Below, piece after piece: positions 1-44,385 of a stretch of 44,385 nt of DNA. The notes beneath the pieces were generated by a model. It made no database searches. It saw nothing but the letters and a program-made list of their open reading frames with translations, and was not told the origin of the DNA. Source of the DNA: Escherichia phage K1-5; the sequence record NC_008152.1; one strand, given 5' to 3'. Made by a program: the position numbers and the translations under genes. The number at the start of each line of letters is the position of its first letter. The stretch's first letter is position 1.

Positions 1-234
1 TCGCCCTCGCCCTCGCCGGGTTGTCCCCATAGGGTGGCCTGAGGGAATCCGTCTTCGACGGGCAGGGCTGATGTACTCCTTGTCTAGTACAAGGGAGGCG
101 GAGGGAACGCCTAGGGAGGCCTAGGAATGGCTTAGTGGTGGACAAGGTGATTACCTTAGTGAAGCCTCTTAGTGCATTCCTGAGGCCATTCAGGGCGTTT
201 ATGAGGGATTGACAGGGTGTGAGGGCGTGGGCTA
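1..234. repeat. Left direct terminal repeat (234 bp), identical to 44152..44385
   Basis: First 234 nt (tcgccctcgccctcgccggg...gagggcgtgggcta) recur exactly at the right end in the same orientation; typical terminal redundancy of T7-like genomes. Confidence 0.95.
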
Positions 235-237
235 TCT
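209..237 (+). promoter_or_regulatory. Candidate host sigma70 early promoter (TTGACA -35, weak -10)
   Basis: TTGACA at 209..214, 17-bp spacer, ctatct/tatctg -10-like; weak -10. Confidence 0.25.
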
Positions 238-608
238 GTTCCTTTGCTCCTCACTTCGTTCGTCGCTGCGGTAGCCTGATGTGTACCTTAGGTTATTCCT
301 TGATGGATAGCTTAGGTTAGCCTTAGTGGATTACCTTAGTTAAAGCCTTAGTGCTTCACTTAGTATCAGCTTAGTAGTGTACCTTAGTAAGTCTTAGTGT
401 CTTCTCTTAGTGATTGCACATGCAAGCATGTAAGATGCTAATAGGTCGCGGTCGGCAGACCGCTAAAGAAAGAGAATGGTAATAAGATGCAGTAGGAGGA
501 ACACCAGAAGCCTAGCCAACCTAAGCTATCCTAGCTCTATATCTATTGCTTTTCCTTAGTCTAACACGTTAGACAACCTATCTTATTCTTAGTGATGGTA
601 ACTTAGTG

Positions 609-637
609 TTGACAAGATAATCTTAGTGTAATACTAT
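609..637 (+). promoter_or_regulatory. Candidate host sigma70 early promoter
   Basis: TTGACA 609..614, 17-bp spacer, TACTAT 632..637; upstream of first early ORFs. Confidence 0.4.
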
Positions 638-780
638 GCATCACGTAGGCGGTGCTGAGGCACCTAGTAGCCAGCTAGTAAGGCATACGAAGAGACTAGC
701 GCTTACATTGCTCTTTAACAATTTGCTTAGTGTAACCTATGTATGCCGTGGTTAACTACTTATTGAATGAGGTATTAACT

Positions 781-960
781 ATGACATTAAATAACCGTGA
801 ACTGTCCGTTCTCTTCACTCTGTTGTGCTACATGATTCGTAACAACGAATTACTTACAGATGATGAGTTAGCCTTGTATCACCGCTTTCTTAACGAAGGT
901 TGGACCGATACAGTTAATCAATACCGTAACATGATAGATGAGTTGAGGGAGGGTAAATAA
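781..960 (+). CDS. Hypothetical early protein (59 aa; track ORF begins 739)
   Basis: ORF track 739..960; GAGG RBS 9 nt before ATG 781; stop overlaps next start (TAATG). Confidence 0.4.
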   Translation: MTLNNRELSVLFTLLCYMIRNNELLTDDELALYHRFLNEGWTDTVNQYRNMIDELREGK

Positions 961-1184
961 TGTATCAACATGAGGTATTCTTTGAATCAGCTAGCGAAGC
1001 TATTCGCTTCCGTGATGATATGATGCAAGCTGGTGTAGGCGTTGATGTGTATCACTATTTGATAGATTACGACACTGAATATCACCGAGTTACCTTAGTA
1101 TCTGAGTATGACAACCAAGTCATTACTGAGTATCTAGGCAGTGAAGATTACGATTACGATGAAGTAATCACGACAAATCTCTAA
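960..1184 (+). CDS. Hypothetical acidic early protein (74 aa)
   Basis: ORF with GAGGGAGGG RBS upstream of ATG 960; Asp/Glu/Tyr-rich. Confidence 0.5.
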   Translation: MYQHEVFFESASEAIRFRDDMMQAGVGVDVYHYLIDYDTEYHRVTLVSEYDNQVITEYLGSEDYDYDEVITTNL

Positions 1185-1192
1185 ATTAACTG

Positions 1193-1221
1193 TTGACAGC
1201 CACGGCATACAAGGTTACATT
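1193..1221 (+). promoter_or_regulatory. Candidate host sigma70 early promoter
   Basis: TTGACA 1193..1198, 17-bp spacer, TACATT 1216..1221. Confidence 0.4.
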
Positions 1222-1574
1222 AAGCATCAAGACGGCGACGTCTTTAAACATCCCGCTCTTTAACAATACGGTTTGTGTCTTGATAGGCTAACTAACTAAC
1301 TAAGGTAATTATCATGAAAGGGTTAATTTGTGTAGAACGTATGGTCAATGGTAAACTTGAAATATTACCACTGGAAAACCAATCTAGCTTCAAAGAGTGG
1401 TATGGCTGTTTCTCACTGATTTAAGGTAAAGGCTGGCACTAGTCAGCCTATCAAGGCGCAAACCAAGCTCTTTAACAATTTGGATGGTAGCTTCTTAGTC
1501 TGGATAGGTTAAACCTAGGAGATTCTCTTGAGTCTCCTATAATGTAACCTAACTAACTAAATGAGGATTAAATC

Positions 1575-1907
1575 ATGGAACGCAATGCTAACGCTTACTA
1601 CAACCTTCTGGCTGCAACTGTTGAAGCATTCAACGAGCGTATTCAGTTTGATGAGATTCGCGAAGGTGATGATTACTCTGATGCACTACATGAGGTTGTA
1701 GACAGCAATGTTCCAGTTTATTACAGCGAAATCTTTACAGTGATGGCTGCTGATGGTATTGATGTTGATTTTGAGGATGCTGGTTTGATTCCTGACACGA
1801 AGGATGTAACCAAGATTCTACAAGCTCGCATCTATGAAGCTCTTTATAATGATGTACCAAATGACAGCGATGTAGTTTGGTGTGAAGGCGAAGAAGAGGA
1901 AGAATAA
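1575..1907 (+). CDS. Ocr-like DNA-mimic anti-restriction protein (T7 gp0.3 homologue)
   Basis: 110 aa, very acidic, ends EGEEEEE; segment VPVYYSEIFTVMAADGIDVDFEDAGLIPDTKDVTKILQARIYEAL closely parallels T7 Ocr as I recall it; GAGGA RBS. Confidence 0.75.
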   Translation: MERNANAYYNLLAATVEAFNERIQFDEIREGDDYSDALHEVVDSNVPVYYSEIFTVMAADGIDVDFEDAGLIPDTKDVTKILQARIYEALYNDVPNDSDVVWCEGEEEEE

Positions 1908-2013
1908 GGATGGAAAAGCAATATAACTTTATCTTTTCAGACGGTGTAACCCTGAAGTGTTCCCTACGATTCGCACAAATTCGTGAGGAAGTACTAGGCA
2001 CTACATACAAACT

Positions 2014-2034
2014 ATTTAGCTGACACTATAAGAG
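2014..2034 (+). promoter_or_regulatory. Degenerate phage-RNAP promoter-like site
   Basis: atttagctgacactataagag; deviates around +1. Confidence 0.25.
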
Positions 2035-2099
2035 AAGGCTTAACAAGGCGTTACTAAGGTAGCGCCTGATTAAACTTTCACTTACTAGGAGTTGAGATT

Positions 2100-2288
2100 A
2101 TGAAAACCTTGATTGGATGCTTCTTGTTGGCTTCTCTTGCTCTGGCATTTACCGCTAAAGCTGGTTATGACGCTTATAAAGTAGAACAAGCCCAGCAAGA
2201 CTGGGCCAAAAAAAAGTTCAACTTGTGCAGCAAGAGCAACACCTACGAGTACTGCAACAAAACACTAAGACACTTATGGAAAGAGTAA
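2100..2288 (+). CDS. Small secreted protein (62 aa) with N-terminal signal peptide
   Basis: AGGAG RBS; MKTLIGCFLLASLALAFTAKA looks like a Sec signal peptide (AKA cleavage site); mature part has 2 Cys. Confidence 0.5.
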   Translation: MKTLIGCFLLASLALAFTAKAGYDAYKVEQAQQDWAKKKFNLCSKSNTYEYCNKTLRHLWKE

Positions 2289-2352
2289 CTAGCCTATAGC
2301 CCACCTGAGTGGGCTATGTGATATTTACTTAACACTATATAAGGTGATTACT

Positions 2353-3237
2353 ATGACTACTGAAAACACCCTCGTGTCTGTCCGTGAAGCTGCAACCGCT
2401 GAAATCAAGCAACATTTAGACAATATCGGCACTTCTTACATCAAAGTAGGGGCTTGTCTGAATGAGTTACGCGGAGACTTTGAAGGTCAAAAAGAGTTTT
2501 TAGCCTATGTTGAAGCAGAGTTTGCCATTAAGAAGGCACAATGTTACAAGCTGATGAGTGTAGCCCGTGTCTTTGAAGGCGATGATCGCTTTAAAGGCGT
2601 GGCGATGCGTGTAATGCTGGCGCTTGTTCCTTTCGCTGATGAAAATATAATCATGGAGAAGGCCGCAGAACTCGCCGCAAATGGCAAGCTGGACACTAAT
2701 GCCGTAAACGCCCTGATTGAACCTAAGAAAGAGTCAAAGGCCGAAACGGTACAATCTAAGGCTGAGACAGTAAAACCGCAGGAGAACGCGACTGAGTCCG
2801 CAGAATCACATGAAATGCAAGCGCCGCAGGTAGTGCCACCCGCGAGCGAGCAGGAGTCCGACGAATCAGCACCTTGGGAAGAGGAAAGCAAACCGGAAGC
2901 GCCAAAGGCAGCTCCGATGGATAACACGGCTAATACTGAGAATGCCGCTATTGCTGGTCTGCTGGCACAAATTAAAGCACTGACTGAGCAATTACAGGCA
3001 GCCAATGACCGCATCGCCTCCTTAAGTAGCGCACGCGAAAGCAAGAAGGCATCCGCACCTATGCTGCCGCAGTTCAAATCTTCCTGCTTCTACGCTCGCT
3101 TAGGCTTGAGCGCGGAGGAGGCAACGAAGAAAACAGCAGTTAACAAGGCACGCCGCGAACTGGTTAAGCTGGGATACGGTGAAGGCCATGAGGCATGGCC
3201 CTTAATCTCTGAGGCAGTAGAAGAGTTGACTAAGTAA
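2353..3237 (+). CDS. Hypothetical early protein (294 aa) with acidic low-complexity linker and C-terminal coiled coil
   Basis: Track ORF 2344 (GTG); ATG 2353 has AAGGTG RBS; SKAETV-type repeats in the middle. Confidence 0.6.
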   Translation: MTTENTLVSVREAATAEIKQHLDNIGTSYIKVGACLNELRGDFEGQKEFLAYVEAEFAIKKAQCYKLMSVARVFEGDDRFKGVAMRVMLALVPFADENIIMEKAAELAANGKLDTNAVNALIEPKKESKAETVQSKAETVKPQENATESAESHEMQAPQVVPPASEQESDESAPWEEESKPEAPKAAPMDNTANTENAAIAGLLAQIKALTEQLQAANDRIASLSSARESKKASAPMLPQFKSSCFYARLGLSAEEATKKTAVNKARRELVKLGYGEGHEAWPLISEAVEELTK

Positions 3238-3300
3238 CCTTATCGGTGGCATCTTCTTAGGTGTCACCTATTAAGGTTTCTTTCACTAGGAGTAAACAAG

Positions 3301-5928
3301 ATGCAAGGCCTACACGCTATTCAACTTCAACTTGAAGAAGAAATGTTTAACGGCGGTATCCGTCGCTTTGAAGCGGACCAACAACGCCAGATTGCATCCG
3401 GTAATGAATCAGACACGGCATGGAATCGCCGCTTATTGTCCGAGTTAATCGCGCCAATGGCTGAAGGTATTCAGGCATACAAGGAAGAGTATGAAGGTAA
3501 AAGAGGCCGTGCACCGCGTGCATTAGCTTTCATTAACTGCGTAGAAAACGAAGTGGCAGCATATATCACGATGAAAATCGTTATGGATATGCTGAACACG
3601 GATGTAACCTTGCAGGCTATAGCCATGAATGTAGCTGACCGCATTGAGGACCAAGTACGTTTTAGCAAGCTGGAAGGTCACGCCGCCAAATACTTTGAAA
3701 AAGTTAAGAAGTCACTTAAGGCAAGTAAGACTAAATCATATCGCCATGCGCACAACGTAGCGGTAGTGGCTGAGAAGTCAGTAGCTGACCGTGACGCTGA
3801 TTTCTCCCGCTGGGAGGCATGGCCTAAAGACACCTTGCTGCAAATTGGGATGACCTTGCTTGAAATCTTAGAGAATAGCGTATTCTTCAACGGGCAACCT
3901 GTCTTCCTCCGCACCTTGCGCACTAATGGCGGCAAACATGGTGTTTACTACCTACAGACTAGTGAACACGTAGGTGAGTGGATAACTGCATTCAAAGAGC
4001 ACGTAGCGCAACTGAGTCCTGCCTATGCTCCTTGCGTCATCCCTCCGCGTCCGTGGGTATCACCTTTTAACGGCGGTTTCCACACTGAGAAAGTAGCAAG
4101 CCGTATTCGTCTGGTAAAAGGAAACCGCGAACACGTCCGCAAGCTGACCAAAAAGCAAATGCCAGAGGTTTACAAGGCTGTTAACGCGTTGCAGGCGACT
4201 AAATGGCAGGTTAACAAGGAAGTTTTACAGGTTGTGGAAGACGTCATCCGTCTAGACCTAGGTTATGGTGTACCTTCCTTTAAACCACTCATTGACCGCG
4301 AGAACAAGCCAGCTAATCCAGTGCCGCTAGAATTTCAGCACCTACGGGGCCGTGAACTGAAAGAAATGCTTACGCCGGAACAATGGCAAGCCTTTATCAA
4401 CTGGAAAGGTGAATGTACTAAGCTGTACACCGCTGAAACTAAGCGCGGAAGCAAATCGGCGGCAACCGTTCGCATGGTTGGTCAGGCCCGTAAATATAGC
4501 CAGTTCGACGCAATCTACTTCGTGTATGCACTGGACAGCCGCAGCCGCGTCTACGCGCAATCTAGCACACTCTCACCGCAATCAAATGACTTGGGCAAGG
4601 CCTTGCTCCGTTTTACCGAAGGGCAGCGTCTTGATAGCGCTGAGGCGCTTAAGTGGTTTTTGGTGAACGGGGCTAATAACTGGGGTTGGGATAAGAAAAC
4701 TTTTGACGTGCGCACCGCTAACGTGCTGGATAGTGAATTTCAAGACATGTGCCGCGACATTGCAGCGGATCCGCTGACCTTCACTCAATGGGTAAATGCC
4801 GACTCCCCTTACGGCTTCCTTGCATGGTGCTTTGAATATGCGCGTTATCTGGATGCACTGGATGAAGGCACGCAAGACCAATTCATGACGCACCTCCCAG
4901 TCCATCAAGATGGTAGTTGTTCTGGTATCCAGCACTACAGTGCTATGCTACGCGATGCAGTAGGTGCGAAAGCAGTAAACCTTAAGCCCTCTGACTCTCC
5001 TCAAGATATTTATGGTGCCGTTGCGCAGGTAGTAATTCAGAAGAATTATGCATACATGAATGCAGAGGATGCGGAAACCTTCACTTCTGGCAGCGTGACT
5101 TTAACAGGTGCGGAGCTGCGTAGTATGGCTAGTGCGTGGGATATGATAGGAATCACTCGCGGCCTGACCAAAAAGCCCGTAATGACACTACCTTATGGCA
5201 GCACACGTCTAACCTGCCGTGAGTCAGTGATTGATTATATCGTTGATTTAGAAGAAAAAGAGGCCCAACGGGCTATTGCGGAAGGGCGTACCGCCAATCC
5301 TGTACACCCTTTTGATAATGACCGTAAAGACAGCCTGACACCTAGCGCAGCTTATAACTATATGACAGCTTTAATCTGGCCTTCTATTTCGGAAGTGGTT
5401 AAAGCCCCTATAGTGGCAATGAAAATGATTCGTCAGCTTGCCCGTTTCGCAGCTAAAAGGAATGAAGGCTTAGAGTATACCCTGCCTACTGGCTTCATCT
5501 TGCAACAAAAGATTATGGCTACTGATATGCTCCGCGTATCTACTTGCTTGATGGGAGAAATCAAGATGAGTCTACAGATTGAAACAGACGTAGTGGATGA
5601 AACGGCAATGATGGGCGCTGCTGCTCCTAACTTTGTGCATGGTCATGATGCCAGCCACCTTATCTTAACAGTCTGCGACCTTGTTGATAAAGGGATTACA
5701 TCTATCGCAGTTATTCATGACTCTTTTGGCACTCATGCAGGCCGTACAGCCGACCTTCGTGATAGCTTAAGGGCAGAAATGGTGAAGATGTATCAAGGCC
5801 GTAATGCACTGCAAAGCCTGCTAGATGAGCACGAAGAACGCTGGTTAGTTGATACCGGAATACAAGTACCAGAGCAAGGGGAGTTTGACCTTAACGAAAT
5901 CTTAGTTTCAGACTATTGCTTCGCATAA
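3301..5928 (+). CDS. T7-like single-subunit DNA-directed RNA polymerase
   Basis: 875 aa; [16 protein letters not shown] (motif A), IHDSFGTHA (motif C), C-terminal ...DYCFA; AGGAG RBS. Confidence 0.97.
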
Positions 5929-44151: not shown

Positions 44152-44385
44152 TCGCCCTCGCCCTCGCCGGGTTGTCCCCATAGGGTGGCCTGAGGGAATC
44201 CGTCTTCGACGGGCAGGGCTGATGTACTCCTTGTCTAGTACAAGGGAGGCGGAGGGAACGCCTAGGGAGGCCTAGGAATGGCTTAGTGGTGGACAAGGTG
44301 ATTACCTTAGTGAAGCCTCTTAGTGCATTCCTGAGGCCATTCAGGGCGTTTATGAGGGATTGACAGGGTGTGAGGGCGTGGGCTA
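44152..44385. repeat. Right direct terminal repeat (234 bp)
   Basis: Exact copy of 1..234 read by eye; window ends exactly at the repeat end. Confidence 0.95.

Follow-up and report, generated by a model that had tools for sequence, protein, structure and literature searches.

[quoted passage not shown] The window, meaning the whole stretch of DNA analysed, spans an entire linear phage genome: its 44,385 bp begin and end with the same 234 bp, an exact direct repeat. T7 Ocr is a DNA mimic that blocks type I restriction-modification (R-M) enzymes and the BREX defence (BrxX/PglX), and it is sensed by AriA of the PARIS system (PMC3439906, PMC7261183, PMC11317158, PMC10802264). The assignment of the K1-5 gene is correct and ordinary rather than new, as RefSeq already carries the annotation. 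An exact look-up returned the same sequence, at 110 of 110 residues, under YP_654101.1 / AAR90044.1 (K1-5 gp3), and RefSeq names YP_654101.1 'ocr-like anti-restriction'. Moreover, a 2026 paper counts Ocr homologues among the conserved features of Vectrevirus phages (PMC13005862). With the annotation and these homologues already in print, the identification holds nothing conceptually new; the modest addition made here concerns the way in which ocr alleles are distributed and exchanged among related phages.

The ocr gene and its homologues

The gene lies on the + strand and extends from an ATG at 1575 to a TAA at 1905–1907, the stop codon being included in its coordinates. A Shine-Dalgarno sequence, GAGGA, can be read from the letters at 1563–1567 (+), 7 nt before the ATG. 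The encoded protein has a pI of ~4.05, with 29 aspartate and glutamate residues against six lysines and arginines, a net charge of −23 and a poly-Glu tail. In the alignment, its N-terminus, MERNANAYY, also begins its homologues. The sequence-only reading had described an acidic protein of 110 residues that aligned by eye with T7 Ocr over its core, and had proposed a pairwise alignment with T7 gp0.3 as a check. The length and the acidity were as described, and the likeness proved to be far beyond chance. When T7 gp0.3, taken from the T7 record, was compared with the K1-5 protein by BLASTP, 49 of 98 aligned residues were identical (50%) and 70% were positives, with 0 gaps and E=1e-33.

Searches against family and structure collections gave the same picture. 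The Pfam family PF08684 ('DNA mimic ocr') matched over profile positions 5–97 of 101 with E=9.6e-31 and a score of 106.7 bits, its gathering cut-off being 25 bits, and phrog_2568 ('ocr-like anti-restriction') of the PHROGs collection matched with E=2.6e-51. Among PDB chains, phmmer aligned T7 gp0.3 (1s7z, 2y7c) with E=2.5e-27, residues 7–107 falling onto residues 7–107 without a gap, and further matches were to T7 gp0.3 in the complexes 6r9b, 7eew, 8q56, 8v45 and others. The only match to a non-Ocr PDB chain had E=0.42. Pfam families other than PF08684 gave 0 matches at E<=0.01, and neither the ArdA DNA mimics nor the T3-type gp0.3 SAM hydrolase matched in this search at that threshold. Among 5.8 billion proteins searched, 427 relatives were found; PF08684 was present in 120/120 of those listed, many of which lie on contigs of ~39–45 kb, the size of a complete phage genome. 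Additionally, tblastn found ocr in 570 phage records, mostly of Escherichia, Klebsiella, Salmonella and Yersinia phages, and many of these are annotated as Ocr. By these comparisons, the product of 1575–1907 is a genuine homologue of the DNA-mimic protein of T7.

Strong purifying selection acts on ocr, with a dN/dS of 0.087 against K1E and 0.061 against K1F. The homology and the selection also bear on the suggestion that the frame is a chance or decayed one, unexpressed, with the true gene on the other strand or in another frame. Alternative frames do exist mechanically, at 1735–2010 (−, 91 aa) and 1561–1701 (+, 46 aa), but the suggestion can practically be dismissed. The + strand frame has family matches at E ~1e-30 (Pfam) and ~1e-51 (PHROG), follows a good Shine-Dalgarno sequence, evolves at a dN/dS of 0.06–0.09, is conserved across hundreds of phage genomes and stands among genes that are all on the + strand. 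Both alternative frames are ruled out as the real gene by the homology of ocr and the selection acting on it.

Some database labels read differently. The UniRef label for K1-5 gp3 is 'Protein kinase', and the ocr genes of several phage records are labelled 'protein kinase' or 'N4-like RNA polymerase'. These labels are evidently annotation slips from the neighbouring genes of T7.

Functional residues and the predicted fold

The T7 and K1-5 proteins align without gaps over residues 1–102, so that their positions correspond one to one, and the comparison was extended to an alignment of six homologues (K1-5, K1E, K1F, SP6, LL11 and T7). T7 Ocr has 24 acidic residues within positions 1–102, and K1-5 Ocr is acidic at 21 of these as well. 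At 14 positions, each of the six homologues has an acidic residue, in agreement with the count of ~15 conserved ones given by Roberts et al. (2012, PMC3439906). In the same study, the residues E59/D62/E64/E66/D67 (mature numbering; 60/63/65/67/68 with Met1), covered by Mut3/Mut12, were found to be 'clearly important for activity' (PMC3439906). All five positions of this block, E60/D63/E65/E67/D68, carry an acidic residue in K1-5 Ocr. Outright differences between the two proteins lie at the ends: T7 Ocr has 117 residues and K1-5 Ocr 110, the N-terminal 20 residues and the C-terminal tail differ, and the six T7 residues 103–108 are absent from the K1-5 protein. Ocr is known to tolerate the neutralisation of ~16 acidic residues per monomer, and it keeps its anti-restriction activity when cut back at the C-terminus to residue 99 (PMC3439906). 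The missing residues 103–108 are no argument against function, because Ocr cut back to residue 99 stays active.

Hydrophobic positions are also retained. F54, A58 and L82 (Met1 numbering) are invariant across the six aligned homologues. An F54D/A58E mutant of Ocr dimerises less efficiently (PMC7261183), and F54 and L82 are sites both of PARIS escape mutations and of contact with AriA (PMC10802264). Judged from the alignment, the hydrophobic residues of the dimer interface are all kept in K1-5 Ocr.

The AlphaFold2 monomer of K1-5 Ocr is a low-confidence model, with a mean pLDDT of 54.7 and a pTM of 0.50, built from a shallow alignment of 44 sequences in which all rows were at least 80% identical to the K1-5 protein. 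Four helices appear in this low-confidence model, at residues 5–25, 35–45, 48–58 and 78–91. When it was compared with the PDB by Foldseek, the best eight matches were all T7 Ocr, with a probability of 1.00 and E ~1e-3; superposed on 1S7Z, the low-confidence model reached a TM-score of only 0.42 with an rmsd of 6 Å. The Ocr fold and the dimer are predicted for K1-5 from homology to a solved structure, with 50% identity in a gap-free alignment, and not from the model.

Early-region context and candidate control elements

By megablast, the K1-5 genome shares 91–95% nucleotide identity with Vectrevirus phages, namely K1E and its relatives (Autographiviridae, Molineuxvirinae). For the first 5 kb, the best match in the phage collection reached 95.4%, with none at 99% or above, and the assignment to K1-5 is based on the exact protein look-up. 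The RNA polymerase gene of SP6 (Zindervirus, Molineuxvirinae) aligns with that of K1-5 at 75%. The earlier description of the genome as SP6-type is sound in the sense that K1-5 falls within Vectrevirus, in the subfamily that also holds SP6.

One of a series of small + strand ORFs, ocr is found 1.5 kb in from the left end of the genome, and the series precedes the gene for an 875-aa single-subunit RNA polymerase at 3301–5928. The gene order matches that of SP6, K1E and LL11, where SP6 gp5, K1E gp3 and LL11 gp06, 'ocr-like anti-restriction', occupy the same place. As in T7 (gp0.3; 1S7Z; PF08684), the gene is an early one that precedes the RNA polymerase gene and has a boxA-like motif ahead of it; it is the fourth or so early ORF in K1-5 and the first in T7. 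Two sigma-70-like promoters were read upstream on the + strand. The first, at 609–637, consists of TTGACA, a 17-nt spacer and TACTAT and would mark the start of the early operon, whereas the second, at 1193–1221, consists of TTGACA, a 17-nt spacer and TACATT and is the nearest upstream of ocr; each is a 10/12 consensus match only, and the consensus scan found no enrichment of such matches over shuffles. Exact SP6-type promoter cores, GACACTATAG, occur on the + strand with all ten copies downstream of the RNA polymerase gene. From its position, ocr is inferred to be an early gene transcribed by the host polymerase as in T7, because sigma-70-like promoters stand upstream of it, the phage promoter cores lie downstream, and the order is that of SP6, K1E and LL11.

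Several other features accompany this region. Degenerate SP6-type promoter-like cores, GACACTATAA and AACACTATAT, are present upstream of the RNA polymerase gene at 2022–2031 and 2331–2340 (+), just after ocr and gene 4 and before a 297-aa gene, the core at 2022 being the first near-match. A 62-aa ORF at 2100–2288 (+) has a signal-peptide-like N-terminus, MKTLIGCFLLASLALAFTAKA, and belongs to phrog_20059, a family with no assigned function. This ORF is a second hypervariable cassette, with 36–57% nucleotide identity to K1E and LL11 and flanks above 90%, and it is followed by a terminator-like hairpin at 2295–2318. An Rfam scan of 1–3400 gave only a sub-threshold match to a microRNA family, on both strands, at 2023–2094; this was rejected as a known RNA family, as the stretch is palindromic and the match reflects its hairpin. 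Furthermore, the heptamer CTTAGTG occurs on the + strand in 11 copies within the left 730 bp (131–732) and in three copies within the right terminal repeat (44282–44325), and 25 copies are found genome-wide against 7.8 expected. This array resembles the short repeat arrays near the genome ends of T7-group phages.

The 150-nt leader of ocr is unusually structured. The RNA fold of 1422–1574 has an energy of −47.7 kcal/mol (z=−4.1), and none of 200 shuffles folds as well. Within the structured part (~1491–1565), a 10-bp hairpin is predicted at 1516–1539 (+), just upstream of the ribosome-binding site of ocr, with a possible role in RNA processing or stability.

Three exact + strand copies of an rrn-boxA-like motif, CTCTTTAACAAT, are also present, each after a G and all in the early region, a count that no shuffle reaches. 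One lies at 1468–1479, 96 nt before the ATG of ocr, and the two others at 711–722 and 1256–1267. The boxA sequence of E. coli rrnB is tgctctttaacaattt (PMC2176067), and a comparison with that published sequence shows the phage motif to be equal to it. Copies of the motif were likewise found in the early regions of K1E (three), SP6 (two), LL11 (two), K1F (one) and T7 (one), and the single T7 copy sits between promoter A3 and gene 0.3. Their probable role is to speed up the expression of early genes, ocr among them, either as sites of NusB/S10 antitermination or as enhancer sites that bind S1.

Two allele types and the inferred function

Two ocr sequence types can be distinguished, ~48% identical to each other, and they cut across Molineuxvirinae and Studiervirinae. 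The 'MERNANAYY' type is found in K1-5 and K1E (Vectrevirus) and in K1F (Kayfunavirus, Studiervirinae), whereas the 'MAMSNMTY' type is found in T7, SP6 (Zindervirus) and LL11 (Vectrevirus). The proteins of the Molineuxvirinae phages SP6 and LL11 (gp5 and gp06) share the early-operon position and the family of K1-5 Ocr, but they are 45–48% identical to it and 69–78% identical to T7 Ocr. As SP6 and LL11 Ocr are nearer to T7 Ocr than to K1-5 Ocr, ocr exists as two distinct alleles among SP6-type phages. Outside Vectrevirus, the nearest Ocr type is that of K1F gp0.3 and other Kayfunavirus phages (Studiervirinae), with 82–85% amino acid identity to K1-5 over residues 1–102. K1F gp0.3 (1114–1623 in K1F) has 169 residues, including a C-terminal extension of ~60 aa that is absent from K1-5 Ocr. 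Kayfunavirus Ocr proteins have 162–175 residues and the extra C-terminal ~60 aa are acidic; one relative of the Kayfunavirus type carries a second precomputed Pfam domain, PF26807.

At the nucleotide level, K1-5 and LL11 are 97–100% identical in the flanks (1480–1539 and 1900–2079), but only 37–77% identical in the ocr ORF between them, a pattern that reads as the clean replacement of a cassette. The ocr genes of SP6 and T7 share 80% nucleotide identity with a dS of ~0.7; the two genomes are otherwise distant. Between K1-5 and K1F, the similarity is confined to the ocr ORF, at 74.6% nucleotide identity with a dS above 2 (saturated). A recent transfer of ocr from K1F is ruled out by these two values, and the exchange between K1-5 and K1F would be old because that identity comes with a saturated dS. 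Read in this way, ocr appears as an exchangeable cassette of two types, passed within the SP6-like and T7-like subfamilies as well as between them, a modest addition to the annotation and an instance of ordinary phage mosaicism. Such mosaicism suggests continuing selection on ocr alleles. It is conceivable, though rather improbable, that the types differ in the defences they inhibit or trigger and that swapping is an adaptive response to hosts that sense Ocr or resist it. In that case, the K1-5 allele would have a host-range effect measurably different from that of T7 Ocr.

A related proposal is that K1-5 Ocr belongs to the family but has a target spectrum diverged from that of T7 Ocr. The K1-5/K1E/K1F type might inhibit a different range of defences, or proteins of the host that bind DNA, RNA polymerase for example, or might be selected to evade PARIS-like sensing of Ocr with anti-restriction kept. 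The depth of the split between the types and its course across phage subfamilies are in favour of the proposal, as is the swapping of ocr as a cassette, frequent allele replacement being typical of arms-race genes; RNA polymerase, moreover, is also bound by T7 Ocr (PDB 6r9b). Against it, K1-5 Ocr keeps the two residues that matter for PARIS sensing, F54 and L82, together with the whole of the critical acidic block. Ocr also tolerates many substitutions (PMC3439906), so 50% identity alone implies no new specificity. A diverged spectrum is therefore judged unlikely, and a T7-like action is the preferred reading.

On this preferred reading, T7-like action would begin with transcription of ocr by the host RNA polymerase from the early-gene end of the genome, so that the protein would be made while the phage DNA is still entering the cell. 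K1-5 Ocr would fold as a small, all-helical, highly acidic protein and dimerise through the hydrophobic interface formed by F54, A58 and L82. The dimer is expected to imitate the shape and the phosphate pattern of ~20–24 bp of bent B-DNA, and it would competitively inhibit both type I R-M enzymes and BrxX/PglX, the methyltransferase of BREX. Hosts carrying PARIS (AriA/AriB) would in turn sense K1-5 Ocr and abort the infection. The homology, the critical residues, the purifying selection and the early position are direct observations on K1-5, whereas dimerisation, targets and phenotype would follow by analogy. For T7 Ocr, the earlier statement is correct: type I R-M and BREX are blocked by it, and an abortive-infection system (PARIS) is triggered (PMC3439906, PMC7261183, PMC10802264). 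For the K1-5 protein, the block of type I R-M and BREX, the triggering of PARIS and an effect on host range are extrapolated from T7; a search of the searchable literature found no experiments on the Ocr alleles of K1-5, K1E, K1F or Vectrevirus.

The K1-capsule-specific phage K1-5 would thus carry the standard counter-defence of Autographiviridae against type I R-M and, by extension from T7, against BREX. By the same reasoning, it should be vulnerable to hosts that carry PARIS. These expectations may help when K1-5-like phages are selected or engineered for therapy.
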